A stretch of 64,000 nt of DNA from Eubacteriales bacterium (GTDB lineage: Bacteria; Bacillota; Clostridia; Christensenellales; CAG-138), in the NCBI GenBank assembly GCA_035446965.1, contig DAOTGE010000007.1, positions 1,270-65,269 of the forward strand. Direction: 5' to 3'. Positions 2,344 through 55,446 of the stretch are shown in pieces. Under the pieces are notes generated by a model. The model saw only the letters and a program-made list of their open reading frames with translations. It ran no database searches and was not told the origin of the DNA. The position numbers and the translations under genes are program-made. The first letter of the stretch is position 1. Each line of letters opens with the position of its first letter.

Positions 2344-3402
2344 TCAGTTTTCCTGTGTTTCGTCGTCTCGATCATCGCCGGGCTCGTTCGCGGAGGGTGC
2401 GCCGCCGTCCAGCAGCCGTTCGCATTCTGTTTCTTCCGCCGCGGCGCCGCCGTGCGGCTTCCTGCGGACCAGTTTCAAAACGGCGTATGTCAGCGCCGCG
2501 AACAGCGTTATAATGCCGATATACTGCGCAACCAGCAGCAGTGCGCCGGACAGGGAACCGCTCTCGCCGCCGTTTCCATTGCCGTTGCCGTTGCCGTTGC
2601 CGTCGCCAAGACCCTCCCCGCGTCCGTTGCCATGCCCGCCGGAGCCGGCGTAGTCGTCGCCGGACGGTGCACTCGGCGTGCTGCCGTCCTGCTGCGCGTC
2701 GTTATCGGCAGGCGAAGGGACCGGCAGGTTGGATTCCGTGCCGGCGTCCGGCAGTTCGCTCAAGTCCATCGGCCGCTGTTCGTCGGCGCCGTCCAGCGCG
2801 ATGTCCCCGCTCGGCGAAAACGTCGCGTGCGAGATGCTTGCGGCCTGAATCGGCGCGGTCAGGAACGAAACAAAGCTGGAGGAATACAGGCTGTATCCGC
2901 CGAAGAGGACGGCCGCGGTCAGCACGGCGGCCAGGGTGATTTTTGCCGCTTTGCCCGCGCTCTTTTTCAGCAGTTTGCCGAAGATATAGTCCGCGTGGAG
3001 GCCGAGATGAACGCCCATCAGGATTACGCTCAGCGCGGCGGAGAAATAGTGCAGCGTTTTAAAATTGCCCGTCACATGGAAGGAGAAAACAACCTTGCTG
3101 ATCAGAACGCCGGTGATGCCGACGGTTAACAGCGCAAGCAACAGCAACGCGTCCACGATATAGCATGCGCGCGCGTGAATTCCGGTCGATTTGGAAAACA
3201 GGCGCTTCGTGACCGCGCCGATCCACCTGGCGTTAAAGAGCAGGTGGATCACGACAAGGCCGACCAGCGCCAGCCCGCCGACCTCGTGGAACGTCAGGCT
3301 GATTACCTGTTTGCGATACATCAATATTAACAAGACGAGCATGACCGCATCGAAAATCAGTTTCCAACTGCGTTTCTGTTTCGCGGTGAGGCCGGATTTC
3401 AT
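2344..3402 (-). CDS. DUF4405-like (cytochrome b-type 4-TM) membrane protein with a long acidic and Gly/Asn-rich C-terminal extension and a terminal TM helix
   Basis: Start chosen at MKSGLTAKQKRSW (AAGGGGG RBS). The TM block has conserved His (FHEVGG, VIHLLFNARW, HLGLHADY). The C-terminal part holds GNGNGNGNGNG and a final TM. The upstream part of the 385-aa track ORF has no RBS. Confidence 0.6.
   Translation of the reverse strand: MKSGLTAKQKRSWKLIFDAVMLVLLILMYRKQVISLTFHEVGGLALVGLVVIHLLFNARWIGAVTKRLFSKSTGIHARACYIVDALLLLALLTVGITGVLISKVVFSFHVTGNFKTLHYFSAALSVILMGVHLGLHADYIFGKLLKKSAGKAAKITLAAVLTAAVLFGGYSLYSSSFVSFLTAPIQAASISHATFSPSGDIALDGADEQRPMDLSELPDAGTESNLPVPSPADNDAQQDGSTPSAPSGDDYAGSGGHGNGRGEGLGDGNGNGNGNGNGGESGSLSGALLLVAQYIGIITLFAALTYAVLKLVRRKPHGGAAAEETECERLLDGGAPSANEPGDDRDDETQEN
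2569..2607. repeat. in-frame tandem hexanucleotide repeat (GCCGTT)n encoding (Gly-Asn)n on the minus strand
   Basis: gccgttgccgttgccgttgcc plus degenerate flanking units, inside the DUF4405-like CDS. Confidence 0.8.
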
Positions 3403-3533: not shown

Positions 3534-3613
3534 ATTAGGCCGTAAATCAAGGGAATGCGCTGAGCCTCCGCCTCCAAGCCACCGCTTGTGGCCGATACGA
3601 CCCCAAGACCCCA
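3534..3613 (-). repeat. intergenic repeat family B, copy B1
   Basis: Minus strand reads ggggtcttggggtcgtatcggccacaagcggtggcttggaggcggaggctcagc.... This matches 51441-51518 and 58413-58490 (core cggtgg[ct]ttggag[ga]cgg[ag]g). It directly abuts the terminator. Confidence 0.7.
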
Positions 3614-3644: not shown

Positions 3645-4433
3645 TCAGCGATAAATCAGCCCGACCAGCGCGTTGGTCCAGGTTGCGGGCAATACCTTCG
3701 CGAGGAAAACGAAAAGCCGGTAGGAAGCGCCAACCGTGCGAAACGCGCGCGGGCTGCGCTCGGTCGCCGCGTGCAGAATCGCCCTTGCGACCTTTTCCGG
3801 CGGCATGCCGGTTTGCTCGTCGTGCTCCATAACGGCAACGGCGTGTTCGAGCGCTTTGCCGTAAACGTTCTCGCCGGCCGCGCTTTTTCTCCGCGCGGCG
3901 GTGAAGCCGGTCTTCACATCCCCGGGAAGCACGGCGCAGACCTTGACGCCGAAAGGCTTTACTTCGTTTCGCAGCGCCAGCGTCAGCGAATTGACCGCCG
4001 CCTTGGTTGCGGAGTAGAACGACTGAAACGGAATGGCGATCGGCGCGGCGACGGAACTGACGTTCACGATATGCCCGCTTTTCGCCGCCCGCATGGACGG
4101 CAGCACGGCCTGGATGCAGTTGAGCGCGCCGAAGAAATTGACCTCAAGCTGCGCGTGCGCGTCGGCGGGGTCTGTGAACTCCGCCGCGCCGGAAATGCCG
4201 AAACCCGCGTTGTTGACGAGCAGGTCTATTTGCCCCTCTTTCTGCAGGATGTGCTCCACGGCGGCCTGCACCTGCGCAGGGATCGTCACGTCAGCCGTGA
4301 TATGCAGAATCGCGCCGTCGTCCGCTTCCCTGCGGGAAAGCTCGTATACGGTGTAACCGTTTTGCAGCAACAGGTCTGCCGTGGCTTTGCCGATGCCGCT
4401 GCTGCCGCCCGTGATCATGCATACGCGCTTCAC
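3645..4433 (-). CDS. classical short-chain dehydrogenase/reductase (candidate 3-ketosphinganine-type reductase)
   Basis: GTG start after GGGGAGG, overlapping the upstream stop (GTGA). Motifs TGGSSGIGKA, NNAG and YSATKAA (YxxxK). The extra N-terminus of the track ORF overlaps the upstream gene. Confidence 0.85.
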   Translation of the reverse strand: MKRVCMITGGSSGIGKATADLLLQNGYTVYELSRREADDGAILHITADVTIPAQVQAAVEHILQKEGQIDLLVNNAGFGISGAAEFTDPADAHAQLEVNFFGALNCIQAVLPSMRAAKSGHIVNVSSVAAPIAIPFQSFYSATKAAVNSLTLALRNEVKPFGVKVCAVLPGDVKTGFTAARRKSAAGENVYGKALEHAVAVMEHDEQTGMPPEKVARAILHAATERSPRAFRTVGASYRLFVFLAKVLPATWTNALVGLIYR

Positions 4434-10135: not shown

Positions 10136-11647
10136 ATGGAGTTTGGGACGGTCCGCCGGAAAAAGCGGTGGGTGTTTCCGCTGTGTCTCGGCCTTTCCGC
10201 GCTGTTTCTTTTGATCTGTACGAAATCTTCTTTTTTTTATCCACTCAACGACTGGGTGGACGTCGACATCTATTTTACCATCGGCAAGGGTATGATGCAC
10301 GGCCATGTGCCGTATACCGACCTTTACGACCAGAAGGGCCCGACGGCGTTTCTGCTCTACGGGCTGGCCTCGCTCGTTTCCGGCGAGTCGTTTTTGGGCG
10401 TGTATCTGCTTGAGACCATTTCGTTCGCGTTTTTCCTGTTTGCAATTTACAAGATCGCTTCGCTGTACGTTAAAGACGGCGCGCTGATTATCCTGCCCGT
10501 CGTTTCTGCGGCCGTGCTCGGCAGTTTGAGTTTTTCACACGGCGGCAGCTTTGAAGAACTCATGATGCCGTTTTTTGCCTGGTCGCTCTACGATTCGCTT
10601 CGATATTTTAAGGAAATTTATCCAAAGCGCGTGCCGCTTTCCATGATTGCACGCAGCGCGTTCTTTGCCGGGCTGATGCTTTTCGGCAAGTTCGTCCTGC
10701 TTGCGTTTTACATTGCTTGGATGGGCGTGATTGCGATTGCGCAGTTCCCTGCAAAACACTGGAAACGCGCGATTTCGGCGAGTCTCCTGTTTCTGGCCGT
10801 CATGTTTGCCGTCGGGATTCCCTGGGTGATCTATTTCTCTGCAAACGGCTCACTGGGCGATTTCTGGAACTACTATTTCTATCAGAATATCTTTGGCTAT
10901 TCCTATCTGGACTCGCCGCTGATCGTTACCATGCCGGTTGCGATCATAAAGAGCGTCGGCGCGTTTTCGTTTCGCAATCCGCAGATCGCGCTGTTTATCG
11001 CGCTCGGGCTCTTCTGGCTGACCTTCAGCAAGCGGGACAAAACGAAAACGGTCGAAAAGATCAATTACTGGCTGCTTGCCGCGTTCCTTGCGGCGGGCAT
11101 CTACTGCGGCGGTCAGGGATACCGCTACTACGGGCTGGTGCTCACACCGTTTATGGCGCTTGGGTTCGTCCCGCTGCTCCGCCTCTGGAACGAGCGCGTT
11201 GCGCCGAAACTGCGGCGGCGCGCGCCGAAAGCCGCTTTGTATGCGGGGCTTTGCGTCGTGACGTTTGCGCTCGCGCTGCTGACGACGGACAATCGCTATA
11301 TGCTTTTTACAAAGAAGGAAGACACGCCGCAGTACCGTTTTGCCGAAACGATGGCAAAAGTCGATTCGCAGAGCGCCGATTCGCTGTTTTGCTATGGGTT
11401 CCCGGATTCCGGGTTCTATTTGGCCGCGGACGTGATTCCGCAGTATCAGTTTTTTGCAACGTCGAACGCGGCGAAGGAAGAAGTAGCGGCGGCGCAGGAA
11501 AGCTATGTGAGCCAAAAACTCCCGGCGTTTATCGTAACGCGGAACAAGGAACTGACACAGAGCGGATACGAATTGATCGATTCGGCGGAATTCCGGTACG
11601 AGGAGTCCGTGCGCACCTACCGGCTGTATGTACGCACCGCGGAATAA
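10136..11647 (+). CDS. polytopic membrane glycosyltransferase (GT39/GT83 ArnT/PMT-like fold)
   Basis: About 12 predicted TM helices. The N-terminal loop has D..D..Y and YTDLYDQKGP, typical of lipid-linked sugar transferases. Start at the second ATG, after GGAGGG. Confidence 0.6.
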   Translation: MEFGTVRRKKRWVFPLCLGLSALFLLICTKSSFFYPLNDWVDVDIYFTIGKGMMHGHVPYTDLYDQKGPTAFLLYGLASLVSGESFLGVYLLETISFAFFLFAIYKIASLYVKDGALIILPVVSAAVLGSLSFSHGGSFEELMMPFFAWSLYDSLRYFKEIYPKRVPLSMIARSAFFAGLMLFGKFVLLAFYIAWMGVIAIAQFPAKHWKRAISASLLFLAVMFAVGIPWVIYFSANGSLGDFWNYYFYQNIFGYSYLDSPLIVTMPVAIIKSVGAFSFRNPQIALFIALGLFWLTFSKRDKTKTVEKINYWLLAAFLAAGIYCGGQGYRYYGLVLTPFMALGFVPLLRLWNERVAPKLRRRAPKAALYAGLCVVTFALALLTTDNRYMLFTKKEDTPQYRFAETMAKVDSQSADSLFCYGFPDSGFYLAADVIPQYQFFATSNAAKEEVAAAQESYVSQKLPAFIVTRNKELTQSGYELIDSAEFRYEESVRTYRLYVRTAE

Positions 11648-11743: not shown

Positions 11744-14257
11744 ATGCGATTGAAACCGCGTGCGCTGACGCTGCTGCTTGCGCTGTTTTTGTTTTTCACG
11801 GCGCTCCCTGCCGCGTCGCGTGCGGAAGAAGGGGAAACGGCGGCGGATTTGACGGCGGCGTGCGTTTTCACGCTGCCGGAAGCGGACGCGGACAAAGAAT
11901 ACCGGCTGACGGACGGATATGTGGAGAGTTATCTCGTGATTCCGGACGAAGAGACGTTGGAAATCGCCCTGCCGGCGGGAGAAACCGTGCAGGGGATCTA
12001 TCTGGAATGGTACACGCTGTCCAAAGCGTACACGATTGAGCAATACGGCGCTTCCGGAGAACTGATCGGCAGCATTGCGCGGCAGGACTTTGTCAACTGT
12101 TATTATCCGCTGGACGCATCCGCCGCGACGGTTAAAATTGTTTGCGATTCGGAAGCGGCGCTTTCCTCCGTCACCGTGTACGGGGAAGGGACGCTGCCGG
12201 ACGGCGTTGAGCAATGGGAACCGACGCTTTCGGAGGCCGACCTGCTCTTTGTTGCGTCCACGCCGGAAGCGGCGGTCACGGACTTTTACGCGCTTCTTGC
12301 GCTTTATACGGTTGAACATCAGGTTCCGACGGTGCTCACGGTGATTGAGCGCGAGAGCCGGACGGAGCAGGGGGAACTGCTCGCCGGACTTTGGCGGATG
12401 GGGATCAGGACCTATCCTGTATTCGGCGATTTTTACTGCGTCAACAACGAGGCGTATAAGCGCGTGCGTTCTTCCTGGGGCGTCGGCGCGACGGATTCGT
12501 TCGTGGAGGACGAGCTTTCCGCTTACGGCGAGAAAATTATCATAACGCACGAACCGGAGGAAATGGCTTTCGACGGCGCGTCGCAGTTCACCGCGGAAGT
12601 CGTGCTGGACGTGGTGGACGACGGGGACGATTTTGAAGCCCTGCAAAAGGTTTACTGCGTGTCCTCGGAAGACGGTACACAGCCGGACTTTTCGCAGGCG
12701 TTGATTGCGTTTGACGGCATGAGCGTGCTGGAAGCGGCGAACGACGCATATTTGGAAAATGCGGACATGCGGCGCTTCCACAAAACGCTGGTTCCATCCT
12801 CCGTATTCCAACTGGCCTACACGACGGTGGGCGAGGATGCGGCCGGAGACGATCTGCTTGAAAATATCGACACAGCGTCGCTGGCGGGTTATATCGACCC
12901 GACGCCGTCGCCCACGCCCACGCTGGAACCGACGGCAACGCCCGAACCTACGCCGACGCCGGAACCGACCGCAACGCCGCAGCCGACGCTGTCCGCGGCG
13001 GATCTCGATTCCGCCGCGGACGAAATCGAGATGTATATGGTGCTCGGCATGTTTGTTGCGCTGCTGCTGGGTATCGGAGGGAGCCTTTGGATCGTCGCCG
13101 CGTCGTACCGGTATATGAACGCCCGGTATGGTGCGGGGCGGGCGCTGATTACGGCGCTGCTGCCGATTCTGACGGCCGTGCTGCTTGTGGCCGTTTTCTA
13201 CTTCGCGGTGCGGCCAGTCCTCATAAAATCGATTGCCGAGCAGGCGTTTGCCGAGCGGATAGCCGCAATAACGCCGGAGCCGACCGCGTCGCCGACCCCG
13301 GAACCGACCGCGACACCCGAACCCACGCCGGAAGCGACGGAAGATGAGACCGAGACGGCGGAAGCGGGCGGCGTGGACGACGACCAATATTATCGTTCGG
13401 CGGACGACCCGGAGGAAGTGATCCTCGTTGATACGGACGCGGGACACTGGGAATACCGCACGGACACGCTTTCCATCATCATCGACCGGTATACCGTGGA
13501 AGAACCGAAACTGAACTGCTACTTTGTCGCGCACATCCGCATGCGCGACGAAAACGGCTTCCGCACCGTGCAGGCGGCGGAGAACCGCAACGGCATGGGC
13601 GCGGTGCGCCCGTGGATTCTTGCGCGTGAGACGAAGTCCGTGCTGCTTATTACGGGCGATAACCTGATTGAGAGCGACGCGGGATATAAGGGAATCCTGA
13701 TCCGGGACGGAATCGTGTTTCAGTATACTTCCGCGTTCGGCTGTATGGCGATGTACCCGGACATGACCATGCGCCTGTTCGAAAAGAAGACCGTCAGCGT
13801 GGACGATCTGCTCGAAGACGGCGTGCGGGACGTTTTCTCGTTCGGTCCGGTGCTGGTGCAGGACGGCGTTGTCAACGAGGCTTCCGGCGAACATCGCCTG
13901 AGCCGCAGAAACAATCCGCGCACCGGAATCGGCATGGTCGAACCCGGACATTTTGTGGCGATCGTCGTGGACGGCCGCCAGTCGGATTACAGCGTCGGCA
14001 TGCTGCTCCCGGAATTTGCCGAGCTGTTTGTAGACGAGGGCTGCAGCGTTGCATACAACCTCGACGGCGGCGTTTCCGCCTGCATGGTGTTTATGGGCGA
14101 ACAGCTCAACCGGCACGGCAACAAACGCGTCGGAACCTATCAGGATACATATCAGCGGCGCGTGCCGGACGGCCTCGTCTGGGGCTACTCAGATCAGGTG
14201 CCGTCCGAGGACGATCCCGTTTATAACACGGGTACGAGCGAGACCGCAACGCCCTGA
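11744..14257 (+). CDS. secreted/membrane protein with a C-terminal phosphodiester glycosidase (DUF2233/NAGPA-like) domain
   Basis: Signal peptide (LLLALFLFFTALPAASRA), N-terminal domain, PT-rich linker, two TM helices, second PT-rich linker, then the C-terminal domain ending ...RTGIGMVEPGHFVAIVVDGRQ...AYNLDGGVSA. Confidence 0.65.
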   Translation: MRLKPRALTLLLALFLFFTALPAASRAEEGETAADLTAACVFTLPEADADKEYRLTDGYVESYLVIPDEETLEIALPAGETVQGIYLEWYTLSKAYTIEQYGASGELIGSIARQDFVNCYYPLDASAATVKIVCDSEAALSSVTVYGEGTLPDGVEQWEPTLSEADLLFVASTPEAAVTDFYALLALYTVEHQVPTVLTVIERESRTEQGELLAGLWRMGIRTYPVFGDFYCVNNEAYKRVRSSWGVGATDSFVEDELSAYGEKIIITHEPEEMAFDGASQFTAEVVLDVVDDGDDFEALQKVYCVSSEDGTQPDFSQALIAFDGMSVLEAANDAYLENADMRRFHKTLVPSSVFQLAYTTVGEDAAGDDLLENIDTASLAGYIDPTPSPTPTLEPTATPEPTPTPEPTATPQPTLSAADLDSAADEIEMYMVLGMFVALLLGIGGSLWIVAASYRYMNARYGAGRALITALLPILTAVLLVAVFYFAVRPVLIKSIAEQAFAERIAAITPEPTASPTPEPTATPEPTPEATEDETETAEAGGVDDDQYYRSADDPEEVILVDTDAGHWEYRTDTLSIIIDRYTVEEPKLNCYFVAHIRMRDENGFRTVQAAENRNGMGAVRPWILARETKSVLLITGDNLIESDAGYKGILIRDGIVFQYTSAFGCMAMYPDMTMRLFEKKTVSVDDLLEDGVRDVFSFGPVLVQDGVVNEASGEHRLSRRNNPRTGIGMVEPGHFVAIVVDGRQSDYSVGMLLPEFAELFVDEGCSVAYNLDGGVSACMVFMGEQLNRHGNKRVGTYQDTYQRRVPDGLVWGYSDQVPSEDDPVYNTGTSETATP
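12899..12988 (+). repeat. Pro/Thr-rich linker-coding tandem repeat 1
   Basis: Encodes PTPSPTPTLEPTATPEPTPTPEPTATPQPT. Reiterated gaaccgac[cg]gc[ag]acgcc units. Confidence 0.8.
13271..13339 (+). repeat. Pro/Thr-rich linker-coding tandem repeat 2
   Basis: Encodes TPEPTASPTPEPTATPEPTPEAT, the same unit as 12899-12988. Confidence 0.8.
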
Positions 14258-22587: not shown

Positions 22588-22604
22588 CGAAGGGGAAATA
22601 TCAA

Positions 22605-22798
22605 AGACCGCCCTAGAACTGGTTTTTTGACGGGTTAACCGTTCTTTGCCTCTCGTCCTTCGGACTCCCGGGCGGCAAAGAACACAGAGAAACCTCCCAT
22701 TCTGGGCGATCGTACTGTGCCGGATGAACCGGCACAGCCGGAAAAACGGGTTAAGGACTGTGGCTCTTAACAATCCCAAGGACTTTTTTGACAGGCTG
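22605..22798 (+). repeat. intergenic structured repeat family A, full copy A1
   Basis: Aligns end to end with 23679-23871. Five hairpins. Lies between the MOSC stop codon and the terminator at 22801. Confidence 0.85.
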
Positions 22799-22800
22799 AT

Positions 22801-22831
22801 ACCGCGGGGATTTACCCGCGGTCTTTTTTCA
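22801..22831 (+). terminator. intrinsic terminator
   Basis: accgcggg-gattt-acccgcggt followed by CTTTTTT. Confidence 0.8.
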
Positions 22832-22845
22832 GGCCGAAAAAAGCG

Positions 22846-22874
22846 TTGTTTTCAATCGAGAATAATGGTATCAT
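22846..22874 (+). promoter_or_regulatory. candidate extended -10 promoter of an orphan ~150-nt transcription unit
   Basis: TTGTTT, 17 nt, TGgTATCAT. Confidence 0.45.
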
Positions 22875-22996
22875 ATAGGCGGTGAATATCGATTGCCGTA
22901 TTCCTGTTTACTTTGCATTTTTGTTTACGAATTAAGCGACCCTCCGCAAAGTTCGTAATGCGTGTCCCGGCGGAAGACGACCGGCGGGGCGCAGGG

Positions 22997-23030
22997 TCCG
23001 CCGTCATGCGGTTTGGCGGCGGATTTTTTA
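22997..23030 (+). terminator. intrinsic terminator/attenuator upstream of mog
   Basis: Perfect 7-bp stem tccgccg...cggcgga followed by TTTTTT. Confidence 0.65.
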
Positions 23031-23126
23031 TTTGCGCAGGGAGGGAGCAAATAAAAACACCGGCACGTTTTGCACGCCGGTGTGGTATGATGAATTCAAA
23101 TCAGAATACAGCGGAGGGAAAATACG

Positions 23127-23630
23127 GTGTTTCAGGCTTCGGTCATTACGGTGAGCGATAAGGGGTTTTCCGGCGAGCGCGAGGATACCTCCGGCCCGCT
23201 TTGCGCGCAGATGCTGCATGAGGCGGGATATGAGGTGCTGACGGTTTCGATCGTGCCGGACGATCAGGCGCGAATCGAAGCCGAACTGCGCCGGCATGCG
23301 GACGAGCTTGGCGCCGCGCTGATTCTTACCAGCGGCGGAACGGGCTTTTCCAGGCGGGACGTGACGCCCGAGGCGACGATCGCCGTCTGTGAGCGGCTTG
23401 TGCCCGGCATTCCGGAGGCGATGCGCGCATACTGCCTGCCGATTACGAAAAGGGCGATGCTTTCGCGCGCGGCGGCGGGCATTTATCACGATTCGCTGAT
23501 TGTCAACCTGCCGGGCAGCCCGAAGGCGGTGCGGGAAAATCTTGCGCCCGTGCTGCCCGCGCTGGAACACGGGATTTGCATGCTGCTCGGCACGAAAAAC
23601 GAATGCGCCGCGGTGCCGGTTAACGATTAA
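23127..23630 (+). CDS. mog: MogA/MoaB family molybdenum cofactor biosynthesis protein
   Basis: GTG start after GGAGGG. Motifs ITVSDKG, LILTSGGTGFSRRDVTPEA, PGSPKA. Confidence 0.85.
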   Translation: MFQASVITVSDKGFSGEREDTSGPLCAQMLHEAGYEVLTVSIVPDDQARIEAELRRHADELGAALILTSGGTGFSRRDVTPEATIAVCERLVPGIPEAMRAYCLPITKRAMLSRAAAGIYHDSLIVNLPGSPKAVRENLAPVLPALEHGICMLLGTKNECAAVPVND

Positions 23631-23678
23631 AACTGCTAAAGCGGGCAAAAAACAAAAGCGCTCCGTTCAGAGCGCTTG

Positions 23679-23871
23679 AGACCGTCAAAAAACCAGTTTT
23701 TTGACGGGGTAACCACGTTTTGCCTTTCGCCCTTCGGGCTCCCGGGCGGCAAAACGCACAGGGAAACCGCCCTAAAGGGCGATCCGTTGCGCCGGATGAA
23801 CCGGCGCAGCCGGAAAAAACGAGTTAAGGGCGGCGGCCCTTAACAATCCCAAGGACTTTTTTGACAGACTG
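23679..23871 (+). repeat. intergenic structured repeat family A, full copy A2
   Basis: See A1. It is flanked on both sides by near-identical hairpins agcgctccgttc[ag]gagcgct. Confidence 0.85.
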
Positions 23872-23898
23872 CAGCGCTCCGTTCGGAGCGCTTTTTTG
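23872..23898 (+). terminator. intrinsic terminator (second copy of the hairpin, carrying the T-tract)
   Basis: agcgctcc-gttc-ggagcgct followed by TTTTTT. Confidence 0.8.
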
Positions 23899-24809: not shown

Positions 24810-24849
24810 TTACGAACCAAACGGGCGGCTCCTTTTTCGGGGCCGCCCG

Positions 24850-24945
24850 AGACCGTCAAAAAACTAGTTTTTTGACGGGTAAACCGTTCTTTGCCTGTTG
24901 TCCTTAATGACTCGTGGACGACAAAGAACACAAAGAAACCGCTCG
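24850..24945 (+). repeat. repeat family A, 5' half copy A3
   Basis: gagaccgtcaaaaaactagttttttgacgggtaaaccgttctttgcc...gacaaagaacacaaagaaaccgc matches the first ~96 nt of A1 and A2. It ends 12 nt before the lgt ATG. Confidence 0.75.
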
Positions 24946-24956
24946 TTTTTGAAAAC

Positions 24957-37842: not shown

Positions 37843-37857
37843 GCTCTAAACGGACAA

Positions 37858-37887
37858 AAAGCGGGCGGTATTGATGCCGCCCGCTTC
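37858..37887 (+). terminator. terminator hairpin after the PrsA-like gene
   Basis: agcgggcgg-tattgat-gccgcccgct followed by TCAGTTT (weak T-tract). Confidence 0.55.
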
Positions 37888-37892
37888 AGTTT

Positions 37893-37970
37893 ACCCAAAA
37901 AGTCCTTGGGATTGTTAAGGGCCGCCGCCCTTAACTCGTTTTTTCCGGCTGCGCCGGAATGTCCGGCGCG
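37893..37970 (-). repeat. repeat family A, 3' half copy A4 (inverted orientation)
   Basis: The reverse complement reads gcgccggacattccggcgcagccggaaaaaacgagttaagggcggcggcccttaacaatcccaaggacttttt, nearly identical to the A2 3' half. Confidence 0.8.
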
Positions 37971-38148
37971 GCGGGCCGGCTTAAACGGGGGCACATACTG
38001 AAAAAGCTTGTTTTCCGGGGATTGTTTTGCTATATTGAGGGCAGGACGATGCGCGGACGGATTTTGACCGGACGCGTGCCGCCGCACCGCCGGGATACGG
38101 GCGATTCCGGCAGAATAATTGAAAAAAATATGCAGGAGGTTTTGCACA

Positions 38149-43849: not shown

Positions 43850-43859
43850 ATCGTTAAAT

Positions 43860-44060
43860 GAATAGCGTGTGCATCTGCGCCTGAAAGAGGCGCCGGCGGA
43901 CAAGCGCCGCCGAGGGAATACGGATGAAATTTCCGGGCTATCCCAGTAACCGTGAAGCCGACGAACGGACAGCGTGCCACTGCTTTAAAAAGCGGGAAGG
44001 CGTCCAAGTAGGATGAAGCCAAGCCGGGAGACCTGTTTGCACATGGACGCTTCTGGGGTG
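43860..44060 (+). promoter_or_regulatory. cobalamin riboswitch
   Basis: GAGGGAAUACGGAUGAAAUUUCCGGGCUAUCCCAGUAACCGUGAAGC, GCCACUGC...GCGGGAAGGC, and the B12 box AAGCCGGGAGACCUG (44021-44035). It lies upstream of a B12-type ABC importer and cobTUSC. Confidence 0.9.
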
Positions 44061-53290: not shown

Positions 53291-55339
53291 ATGAAAAGAC
53301 TATTATGTGTTTTACTTGCGGTGCTGATGGTGTTCGGCGCGACCGCCTGCGCTTCCCCGGAAGCGGAGTCCGCCGCCGCACAGGCAACGGCCGAACCGGC
53401 CGCCGAAGCGACCGCCGAACCGGTTTCCGAATCGGTCGTCGTGTTCACCGACCCGGTGCTGGAGGAAATGGTGCGTGCCGCGATGGAGAAGCCCGAAGGC
53501 GACATCACACTCGCCGAGGCGGCGGAAGTGACCGAGCTCGATTTGCAGATGGAATCTGTCGACTGGTCGGAACCGCGGATTTCCGATATTTCCGCGCTGC
53601 AGTACTTTACGGGGCTGACGTATCTCAACCTCGGCTGGGCGCTGCAAAACGACGGCCTCGGCGTCGACCTCAGCCCGCTTTCGGGGCTGGACAAGCTGGA
53701 CACTCTTTTCCTCTGCTGCGACGACATCCGGGACGTCACGCCGCTTTCATCGCTGACACAGCTCGGCAGTCTCTGGCTGTTCGGCTGCGACGGGGTCAGC
53801 GATCTTTCGGCAATCTCCGGCCTGACCAACCTTTGGGACATCTGGCTGCAGGATTGCTCCATTACGGACGTTTCCCCGCTTTCCGGCATGACGGAGCTCA
53901 CGCGGCTGTACCTCGGTAACAACATGATTACGGATATCTCCGCGCTTTCCGGCATGACGAAGCTGACCGAGCTGACCCTTGCGGGGAATCCCATCCTGGA
54001 CTATTCGCCGGTCGAGGGGATATTCGCCAATTTGACCGAGCCGGATTTCGACCTCGACCCGGACAACGACGTACTCGTGTTTGACGATTCCGTTCTGGAG
54101 GCAAGAGTGCGCGAAGCGCTCGGCCTGCCGGACGGCGAGATCACGTTTGCCGACGTGATGGACGTTACGGACCTTTCGATCGACAACGACTGGCAGGAAA
54201 ATTTCCCCGAAGGTTCTCAGATTTCGGACATCACGCCGCTGAAGTATTTCGTAAACATGAAATATCTTGGCATACAGTTCCACGCGATACGCGACATCAC
54301 GCCGCTTTGCGGGCTGACAAAGCTGGATTCACTCTGCCTTGGCGGCAATCCGGTGCAGAATGTCGACGCGCTGAAAAACCTGACGAACCTTGCGAACCTC
54401 ACGCTCTGGAACTGCGAGGCGCAGGATTATTCCGCGCTGGCGGGGCTGACGCAAATGCGTACGCTTAACATTGCGTATTCCACGTTCAGCGATCTGAGCC
54501 TGCTTTCCGGCATGACGGAACTGAGCGAGCTGGACGTCGTAAAATCGAACGTTATCGATCTTTCCCCGCTGGCCGGCATGACGCAGCTGAAAAAACTCTG
54601 GGTCGAAGGATGCCCGATTTACGACTATGCGCCGCTGAACGAAATCTATCCGAATCTGGTGGAAACGGACTACGACCCGACGTCCGTCGATATCGAGGCG
54701 CTTTCGCGCTATCCGGAAGACGAAGTGATCGTGTTCAGCGATCCGGTGCTCGAAGAAAAAGTGCGTAACCAGACGGGACTGCTGGACGGCGACATCACGT
54801 TTGCGGACGCAAAGAAGGTAACGGAACTGGAGCTTGGAATCGATTATCAGCAGGAATACCCGGCGGGCACGCAGATTACGAATATCGACGCGCTGAAGTA
54901 TTTTGTGAATCTCAAGAGCCTGGGGCTCGGCTTCCACGCGGTGACCGACATTTCACCGCTTGCGGGTCTGACGAATCTGGAAAGCCTCAGCCTCGGCGGA
55001 AACCCGGTGGAGGATATTTCCGCGCTGTCGAATCTGACCAAAATCGGGTTTTTAACGCTTTTCAGCTGCTGCGCGGAGGATTATTCTCCGCTGGCGAACC
55101 TGACCGAGCTTTGGACGCTCTACATCAGCTGGAGCACGCTGAGCGATCTTTCGGTGCTTTCGGGGCTGACCAATCTTGAAACGCTCGACGTTTCGCACAC
55201 GCTCGTAACGGACGTTTCGCCGCTGGCGAATCTGGTAAATCTCAAAAAGCTGATACTGGAAGGCGATGAAATCTCCGATTATTCCCCGCTGCAGGACATC
55301 TATCCGAATCTTAAGGAAAAGGACTTTGAAATGCCGTAA
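53291..55339 (+). CDS. leucine-rich repeat (internalin-like) lipoprotein
   Basis: Lipobox VFGATAC. Many 22-aa LRRs (LxxLxxLxLxxNxIxDISPLxG) are arranged in three similar modules. Confidence 0.8.
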   Translation: MKRLLCVLLAVLMVFGATACASPEAESAAAQATAEPAAEATAEPVSESVVVFTDPVLEEMVRAAMEKPEGDITLAEAAEVTELDLQMESVDWSEPRISDISALQYFTGLTYLNLGWALQNDGLGVDLSPLSGLDKLDTLFLCCDDIRDVTPLSSLTQLGSLWLFGCDGVSDLSAISGLTNLWDIWLQDCSITDVSPLSGMTELTRLYLGNNMITDISALSGMTKLTELTLAGNPILDYSPVEGIFANLTEPDFDLDPDNDVLVFDDSVLEARVREALGLPDGEITFADVMDVTDLSIDNDWQENFPEGSQISDITPLKYFVNMKYLGIQFHAIRDITPLCGLTKLDSLCLGGNPVQNVDALKNLTNLANLTLWNCEAQDYSALAGLTQMRTLNIAYSTFSDLSLLSGMTELSELDVVKSNVIDLSPLAGMTQLKKLWVEGCPIYDYAPLNEIYPNLVETDYDPTSVDIEALSRYPEDEVIVFSDPVLEEKVRNQTGLLDGDITFADAKKVTELELGIDYQQEYPAGTQITNIDALKYFVNLKSLGLGFHAVTDISPLAGLTNLESLSLGGNPVEDISALSNLTKIGFLTLFSCCAEDYSPLANLTELWTLYISWSTLSDLSVLSGLTNLETLDVSHTLVTDVSPLANLVNLKKLILEGDEISDYSPLQDIYPNLKEKDFEMP

Positions 55340-55366
55340 AAGCAAGGCGGCGCAGTCGGAAGGCAT

Positions 55367-55416
55367 GGGTTAAGGGGCGCAACCCTTAACAATCCCAAGG
55401 GCTTTTTAACAGACTC
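55367..55416 (+). repeat. repeat family A, 3' terminal stub A5
   Basis: gggttaaggggcgcaacccttaacaatcccaagggctttttaacagactc matches the last ~50 nt of A1 and A2. It abuts the terminator. Confidence 0.7.
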
Positions 55417-55417
55417 A

Positions 55418-55446
55418 AATCCCCCGCAGGTATGCGGGGGATTTGC
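55418..55446. terminator. bidirectional intrinsic terminator
   Basis: aaatcccccgca-ggta-tgcgggggattt between convergent genes. Confidence 0.8.

Follow-up and report, generated by a model that had tools for sequence, protein, structure and literature searches.

The DNA analysed here, referred to as the window, is a stretch of 64,000 nucleotides from a Eubacteriales bacterium of the Christensenellales (GenBank assembly GCA_035446965.1, contig DAOTGE010000007.1, positions 1,270 to 65,269). Downstream of several of its genes, including a MOSC gene and mog, lie copies of a non-coding element of ~195 bp, which we call family A; two copies are complete and three are fragments, numbered A1 to A5 in order along the window (Table 1). 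An earlier note, made from the letters alone, had listed five copies, had judged the complete ones to be about four fifths identical, and had placed the element between stop codons and intrinsic terminators. A scan with nhmmer, using a profile built from 78 copies, recovered all five places and no further family A copy in the window; a MAFFT alignment and a repeat search also recovered two full copies and three fragments, and A1 and A2 are 82% identical. The adjoining terminator stands as described, but its hairpin is duplicated and present on both sides of the element. The bounds of two fragments also needed revision, as A4 is longer than the 37893-37970 first given, and A5, given as 55367-55416, matches the profile over 55348-55414. 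All five copies lie in the sense orientation relative to an upstream gene. The possibility that A3 and A4 are one copy split by an inversion was considered and rejected, because their flanking hairpins differ.

Family A is bounded by imperfect terminal inverted repeats of 15-16 nt, the left one being 5′-GAGACCGTCAAAAAAC and the right one CTTTTTTGACAGGCTG-3′, and GAGACCGTCAAAAAAC agrees with the reverse complement CAGCCTGTCAAAAAAG at 12 of 15 positions; the 9-mer inverted termini that had been noticed earlier form the core of these repeats. At the left end the core GTCAAAAAAC occurs twice, as inverted copies 2-3 bases apart, and at the right end once; the resulting left-end palindrome of 26 bp reads CCGTCAAAAAAC-NN-GTTTTTTGACGG. 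Ends of this kind may be called CAGGCCGTCAAAAAAC-type or SAGRCCGTCAAAAAAC-type ends. As the earlier note had stated, no open reading frame (ORF) is conserved, single-base indels between copies breaking every reading frame, and the Rfam search that it had proposed (Rfam 15) gave no match for any copy, neither at the gathering score nor at E <= 10.

The hairpin on either side of the element is a duplication of the target. At A2 the order is AAGCGCTCCGTTCAGAGCGCTT, element, (C)AGCGCTCCGTTCGGAGCGCTT and TTTT, and the downstream hairpin copy differs from the upstream one by a single loop base. Target statistics were compiled from 85 distinct full copies with flanks, and in 64 of them both ends are abutted, with gaps of 0-2 nt, by a direct repeat of 16-40 bp (median 24). 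The sequence of this repeat is unlike at every site; it is palindromic and terminator-like, with a median perfect outer stem of 9 bp. When the upstream flank of one copy was compared with the downstream flank of another as a control, the score reached at most 29, whereas the observed median is 37. As reconstructed, the target has an A-tract, then a G+C-rich hairpin, then a T-tract; the duplication begins with A in 82% and ends with T in 89% of cases, and the cuts therefore fall 1-4 nt outside the G+C stem. The length of the duplication varies with hairpin size and does not reflect a fixed stagger, and the left junction has no conserved tetra- or pentanucleotide. At one locus (L086:7908-8378) hairpin, element, hairpin, element and hairpin follow each other in tandem, which implies that a duplicated hairpin was targeted again.

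Orthologous sites are found both occupied and empty, a polymorphism that the earlier note had proposed looking for. Two orthologous regions (L013 and L079) are occupied and empty reciprocally, and each empty allele has one hairpin. In three relatives whose Mog is 79-86% identical to that of the window (L251, L253 and L255), the A2 and A3 sites are empty, again with one hairpin. The spacer between mog and the DUF5684 gene measures 53-91 nt in these relatives and contains one bidirectional terminator, as against 279 nt, arranged as hairpin, A2 and hairpin, in the window. The spacer between the DUF4190 and lgt genes has a single hairpin in L255 where the window has a hairpin followed by A3; A3 is thus an insertion from which the 3′ half and the downstream hairpin were lost later. 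Empty sites, for example AAAAAAGCGCAGCGAGAAGCTGCGCTTTGG, contain no TA. Since the orthologous empty sites have one hairpin, the element targets terminators and duplicates the whole hairpin. Judged by the outcomes that the earlier note had named as refuting, the data thus speak for a mobile element.

Family A is not confined to the window. The genome of the window is absent from the GTDB species representatives searched, and the nearest named relative of its Mog, at 86% identity, is in a Christensenella sp. metagenome-assembled genome (MAG). Among these species representatives, the exact pattern of internal hairpin 5 (GTTAAGG...CCTTAAC) occurs at 14 loci: 11 in one uncultured Oscillospiraceae MAG, two in the complete Christensenellaceae chromosome OY762278, and one, a remnant consisting of hairpin 5 only, in a Huintestinicola MAG. 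The Oscillospiraceae MAG contains at least 15 family A copies. A pattern scan for the left-end palindrome found at least 116 metagenome contigs, and 100 full and ~50 partial copies were counted by blastn with the consensus. The hosts of family A have a G+C content of ~55-60%. In IMG/VR, the left palindrome scan yielded one further copy (L015), the right-end scan none, and a scan with the 16-nt repeat 112 matches that were all due to chance or to phage coding sequence; blastn of the element against plasmids gave no match. One copy (L055:100-260(-)) sits at a terminator directly after a tRNA gene and has an extra internal segment of ~60 nt.

Related elements share the ends of family A. A second family, B2, of ~200 or ~315 bp, occurs on contigs from other samples and has the same left palindrome CAGGCCGTCAAAAAACTTGTTTTTTGACGG, a similar right end GTTCTTTGACAGGCTG, and terminal inverted repeats identical at 13 of 16 positions. 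A short central motif, CACAGRGAAMCCGC, is common to B2 and family A; the interior of B2 is hairpin-rich and otherwise unrelated. Duplicated terminator hairpins, here of 9-38 bp, flank B2 too, and a 70-bp mini-element that is little more than ends shows this hairpin duplication as well. In addition, solo palindromes of 30-34 bp consist of two abutted inverted-repeat cores, and one of them (L123) lies at a site where L052 has a full copy. The mobile system is defined by its ends, not by its interior.

On this evidence, family A is very probably a non-autonomous DNA transposon of ~195 bp, a miniature transposable element with inverted repeats (MITE), that inserts at terminator-like palindromes and duplicates the whole palindrome in Christensenellaceae- and Oscillospiraceae-like anaerobes. 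A non-autonomous mobile element targeting terminators was one of the readings offered in the earlier note; the inverted repeats, the site-specific duplications, the copies in several genomes and the pairs of occupied and empty sites all bear it out. Insertion into intrinsic-terminator-like palindromes, with hairpin-element-hairpin as its product, is shown by the data. As to mechanism, a DDE-type transposase supplied in trans would join the 3′ ends of the element to both target strands, attacking an extruded cruciform (or a hairpin at the replication fork) where its stem-loops have their 5′ feet; a short fixed stagger across the junction would then, after gap repair, give ‘stagger plus palindrome’.

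Such an insertion would have consequences for transcription. The upstream hairpin copy is followed by GAGACC and has no T-tract, so transcripts should run through the element and stop at the downstream copy. Of the two sides of the target, that of the A-tract would remain attached to the upstream hairpin copy, and that of the T-tract to the downstream one. For a convergent gene, the A-tract left with the upstream copy should provide termination in mirror image, and the split of the two tracts should therefore preserve the termination of both flanking genes, in each case at the far side of the element. Insertion would thus be nearly harmless, each 3′ untranslated region (UTR) becoming longer by ~220 nt. 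Since no T-tract is left on the upstream hairpin copy, the element is likely to be co-transcribed with the upstream gene, and may for that reason have an effect at the RNA level.

Table 1. Positions of family A copies and adjoining features in the window, and of related elements at other loci (prefixed by the locus; (-) marks the minus strand).
Feature	Positions	Strand	Remarks
MOSC gene stop codon	22585-22587		upstream of A1
A1, full length	22604-22798	+	nhmmer E = 1.5e-57; left end AAGACCGCCCTAGAAC degenerate, no recognisable hairpin copy on upstream side
Terminator hairpin and T-tract	22801-22830	+	adjoins right end of A1
A2 upstream target-hairpin copy, AAGCGCTCCGTTCAGAGCGCTT	23656-23677	+	A-tract before, no T-tract after
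A2, full length	23678-23871	+	nhmmer E = 6e-65
A2 left inverted repeat	23678-23693
A2 left-end palindrome	23682-23707
A2 right inverted repeat	23856-23871
A2 downstream target-hairpin copy, AGCGCTCCGTTCGGAGCGCTT, and T-tract	23872-23898	+	hairpin itself 23873-23892
Terminator hairpin at left end of A3	24823-24848	+	upstream target copy; after DUF4190 gene
A3, 5′ half only	24849-24947	+	model 1-98; nhmmer E = 1.4e-22; 3′ half and downstream hairpin deleted; leftover TTTTTG ahead of lgt start codon
Terminator hairpin and T-tract, AAGCGGGCGGCATCAATACCGCCCGCTTTTT	37856-37886	-	adjoins right end of A4
A4, 3′ half (model 93-195)	37887-37989	-	profile match 37888-37989, model 93-194; nhmmer E = 2.5e-21; downstream of FlK-type thioesterase gene (minus strand)
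A5, 3′ stub (model 126-195)	55348-55416	+	profile match 55348-55414, model 126-193; nhmmer E = 9.9e-14; directly 3′ of stop codon of leucine-rich repeat (LRR) protein gene
Bidirectional terminator-like hairpin	55417-55444		listed on plus strand; adjoins right end of A5; between LRR gene (+) and Fe-ADH gene (-)
B2 copies	L024:1255-1571; L016:1964-2163(-); L053:3670-3869(-); L131:1142-1341(-); L130:206-401
70-bp mini-element	L109:~4285-4353(-)
Solo palindromes	L120:3760-3793; L078:1093-1126; L123:~10435-10470		also at L090
IS630-family insertion sequence	L134:2405-3303; L135:255-1153; L136:349-1247; L137:34-931		partial at L048:1-90(-) and L068:10093-10176

Several observations weigh against the interpretation of family A as a MITE that duplicates terminator hairpins. 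The window, ~0.9 Mb of element-bearing contigs and IMG/VR yielded no autonomous element with family A ends, and the only insertion sequence (IS) with a matching repeat core, an IS630-family element described below, duplicates TA and not hairpins. Conservation is lower in the outermost 4-5 nt of both ends than in the core, an unusual trait among transposon tips. The remaining 21 of the 85 full copies have no recognisable duplication, and are old, rearranged or recombinant (e.g. A1, L087 and L004b). Finally, we infer both the extrusion of a cruciform or hairpin at the target and the transposase family, and hence the chemistry.

The interior of the element folds into hairpins, which the earlier note had described as common to the full copies and as differing in a compensatory manner; both points hold generally over the 78 distinct copies, on whose unbiased MAFFT alignment the hairpins were tested. 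RNAalifold, run on 16 copies, overlooked hairpin 4, and the structure was set by hand and then tested by pair counts. A1 and A2 fold far better than shuffled sequences (z = -3.9 and -5.8, respectively), as does the reverse strand (z = -5.2). Across the 78 copies, 95.4% of cells pair. Changes on both sides are seen in 16 pairs (160 cells), compared with 57 ± 10 cells in shuffles and at most 30 with slid partners, and fall mostly in hairpins 2 (with its inner stem) and 4 and in the apical pair of hairpin 5. Internal hairpin 3 has a loop with two forms, GTTCC and GAAAC, that are nearly reverse complements. The internal hairpins are kept by compensatory changes, and this upkeep may act at the level of DNA or of RNA. 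On the minus strand, hairpin 5 of A2 (23823-23844) is followed by a T-run, TCGTTTTTTC, and resembles an antisense-facing intrinsic terminator; this T-run is interrupted in many other copies.

These hairpins are one ground for regarding the element as primarily a functional structured RNA, either a 3′-UTR module or a small RNA, whose copies are kept by selection and whose mobility is secondary. The compensatory changes would suit such a role, as would the sense placement of all five window copies, the read-through expected once the upstream hairpin copy has lost its T-tract, and the conservation of hairpin 5 and the following AATCCC, which exceeds what pairing needs and suggests a putative protein-binding site. 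However, wobble cells give no signal for the sense strand (56 G-U versus 111 A-C, with one doubtful pair excluded), so that the structure could act in DNA, or in RNA of either strand. Nor is the orientation of the element fixed: raw ORFs being uninformative in G+C-rich DNA, it was scored from A-tracts and T-tracts, and at unidirectional terminators the T-tract lies on the right-end side in 19 cases and the other way in 9 (p = 0.09), a weak bias. In the absence of a G-U versus A-C asymmetry and of a fixed orientation to the T-tract, the structured 3′-UTR RNA family that the earlier note had considered is not borne out as the primary explanation, and mobility explains the copy number. Furthermore, the sites are polymorphic among close relatives, as for a selfish insertion, and the same ends serve B2 with its unrelated interior. 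Even the covariation has a counterpart in the duplicated host hairpins, pointing to palindrome dynamics at the DNA level. Between the two copies of a duplicated hairpin, differences are ~10x commoner in loops (43/459 positions) than in stems (9/928), compensatory stem changes occur at L064 and L114, and at L036 the copies (3356-3379 versus 3575-3598) differ by an inverted loop. These differences fit either selection on both hairpins or templated mutation inside palindromes, and such patterns are a reason to read covariation cautiously as proof of RNA function. Taken together, we consider a primarily RNA-based function improbable. A further reading, that of a palindrome-associated transposable element (PATE) of the IS200/IS605 type or a REP/RAYT-type element (REPIN), moved as single-stranded DNA by a Y1 HUH transposase, is almost certainly wrong. 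It would accommodate the subterminal hairpins, above all the left-end palindrome, and the intergenic location beside hairpins. PATEs of the IS200/IS605 type, however, lack terminal inverted repeats, leave the target unduplicated, and insert on the 3′ side of a fixed tetra- or pentanucleotide. Family A has both inverted repeats and long, site-specific target duplications, on account of which the PATE and REP/RAYT readings fail, and its junctions lack a fixed short motif. The tnpA, tnpB or RAYT gene with the same ends that the earlier note had suggested as a sign of such an origin was found neither at the junctions examined nor between any end pair.

With family A taken as a MITE, the nature of its transposase becomes the next consideration. 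No transposase lies beside a fragment in the window, nor beside the 3′-only and 5′-only fragments at L014, L006, L002, L112, L072 and L124, where only ordinary genes are present, and among all loci no pair of ends 0.45-6 kb apart encloses one. A lead comes from contigs with B2 copies. At L068, the left palindrome and a B2-like stretch are followed by a promoter and the start of an ORF (MSYDKKYRLRAISY); L048 has a homologous promoter and ORF start (MAYSEDFRMRVMEYL), which at the DNA level matches an ‘IS630 transposase-related protein’. A chimeric probe, made of the 15 N-terminal residues of the L048 ORF and the rest of the Oscillatoria IS630 OrfA, was used only to fetch P0087, five of whose loci could then be read directly. 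At its N-terminus P0087 is identical to the L048 ORF, and these loci contain an IS630-family IS of ~0.95 kb with two ORFs, OrfA (HTH_Tnp_IS630) and OrfB (DDE_3), apparently joined by a frameshift. This IS has the ends TAGTCAAAGAACTT... and ...AAGGTTGTTGACTA and has TA on both sides at five different sites, none of them with a hairpin. The MITE ends are matched by the repeat core of this IS, GTCAAAGAAC: GTCAAA(G/A)AAC(TT) is common to both, the terminal six nucleotides are not, and the match of 10-13 nt is end-specific (MITE left end, CCGTCAAAAAACTTG; B2 right end, AGGTTCTTTGAC, reverse complement GTCAAAGAACCT). We regard the IS630-family IS as a lead, not an identification. A further hit (H2), on a Paraclostridium plasmid, was set aside as noise, the protein having no Pfam family.

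Two candidates for the mobilising enzyme can be weighed against each other, and both are possible but doubtful. In a proposal that is compatible with the MITE interpretation, an IS630/Tc1-mariner-family transposase could act with a 2-bp stagger across the base of an extruded cruciform, so that 2 bp plus the palindrome are duplicated. This proposal draws on the sharing of contigs between the IS and B2 copies (L048, and L068 with the related ORF), on the end-specific core, on the best plasmid relatives being annotated as IS630 family transposases, and on the MITE tips CAG...CTG, which we take to resemble those of Tc1/mariner elements. Against it, the co-occurring IS duplicates TA at all five sites, the empty sites of family A have no TA, the MITE has six extra nucleotides outside a common core that is itself short and A-rich, no IS630 homologue is present in the window or in the family A contigs, and the contigs of the IS have a G+C content of 42-47%, well apart from that of the family A hosts. 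Alternatively, the partner could be an IS30-family element resembling IS1630, or a member of the IS1182 family; a preference for hairpins or palindromes is known from these two IS groups. Direct repeats of IS1182-family elements range from 0 to 60 bp in ISfinder. IS1630 is described as duplicating terminator-like inverted repeats of 19-26 bp, IS1272/TnSha1 of the IS1182 family aim at terminator hairpins (PMC4923244), and some IS1182 members have been reported to target palindromes (PMC5678879). However, no such transposase was seen near any copy, and IS1272 deletes the hairpin and does not duplicate it. Bolder still, and rather unlikely, is the idea that the whole superfamily (family A, B2, the 70-bp mini-element and the 34-bp solo palindromes) is moved by an IS630/Tc1-mariner-type transposase that integrates across the base of an extruded terminator cruciform instead of at TA, its 2-bp stagger duplicating the entire terminator. 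If true, this would amount to a structure-guided ‘safe haven’ strategy that does not disturb termination on either strand, the internal hairpins would supply many genes with a reusable 3′-UTR module, and the IS630 link would widen the target repertoire of the Tc1/mariner superfamily.

Duplication of a hairpin has few parallels, the only precedents being IS1630 of the IS30 family and a model proposed for IS1272. IS1630 of Mycoplasma fermentans is reported to target and duplicate terminator-like inverted repeats of variable sequence and length, 16-26 bp (Calcutt, Lavrrar and Wise, 1999, J Bacteriol 181:7597). By this described behaviour it resembles family A, as in both a whole inverted repeat of variable length is duplicated at the target. 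It is an autonomous IS of 1.2-1.4 kb with 27-bp inverted repeats from a low-G+C mollicute, whereas family A is a 195-bp non-coding MITE of G+C-rich Clostridia, with duplications of up to 40 bp and no linked IS30-type gene. In staphylococci, IS1272/TnSha1 (IS1182 family) target terminator hairpins by structure, in both orientations and without primary-sequence specificity (PMC4923244, PMC5678879), but IS1272 takes away or replaces part of the hairpin, and the target is not duplicated. In the model of Wan et al. (2017; PMC5678879, Fig. 13), the stem-loop is duplicated when a cruciform is attacked at its 5′ feet, and the duplication made by family A corresponds to the geometry of this ‘5′ feet’ branch. 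With IS630-family IS and their MITEs, such as RUP with IS630-Spn1, family A has in common the general MITE architecture, the CAG...CTG tips and the core match; in contrast to their duplicated TA, it duplicates palindromes of 16-40 bp at sites without TA, and has six extra terminal nucleotides. Class C group II introns also prefer the stem-loops of intrinsic terminators, which they recognise by structure; these retroelements have a ribozyme and a reverse transcriptase, lack inverted repeats, insert downstream of the hairpin and make no target duplication. Rfam found no intron domains in family A copies.

Like Correia, ERIC, BOX, SPRITE and REP/BIME repeats, family A is short, hairpin-rich, multi-copy and intergenic, and such repeats are often co-transcribed. 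To our knowledge, small bacterial repeats have target duplications of 2-9 bp where these are known, and REP elements have none. SPRITE is terminator-like, and a review of prokaryotic MITEs describes no element that duplicates a whole host terminator (PMC10969869). Family A is real and abundant and, as far as we checked, has no earlier name in Rfam or in that review. The class of element is already known; its mode of insertion is rare, structure-directed, and has one clear precedent.

The window has further features. The leader of mog (22900-23126) contains two strong terminator-like hairpins, at 22993-23027 (+) and 23057-23083 (-), and has no Rfam match; it may be a candidate attenuator or riboswitch of this molybdenum-cofactor gene region. 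In relatives, an ABC transporter lies upstream of mog where the window has MOSC. The sole Rfam matches in the window are a cobalamin riboswitch (43856-44054, 82 bits) and a tRNA gene (1823-1896). Two internal coding repeats were noted, one at 12915-13341 with a period of 18/24 nt and of Pro/Thr-rich type, the other at 53677-55325, corresponding to the leucine-rich repeats of the 682-aa LRR protein (53291-55339).

Very few cases are known of transposons that read the shape of DNA, not its sequence, and copy a whole terminator. The copies described here form a natural data set of more than 100 insertions from two families, with matched empty sites, which defines the rules of targeting (A-tract, hairpin and T-tract, with cuts 1-4 nt outside the G+C stem) and offers a direct route to testing cruciform- or hairpin-directed integration. 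For annotators, they are a caution that covarying repeats of this kind need not be RNA genes. Within Christensenellaceae- and Oscillospiraceae-like genomes, they explain the occurrence of ‘double terminators’ and of long structured 3′ UTRs.

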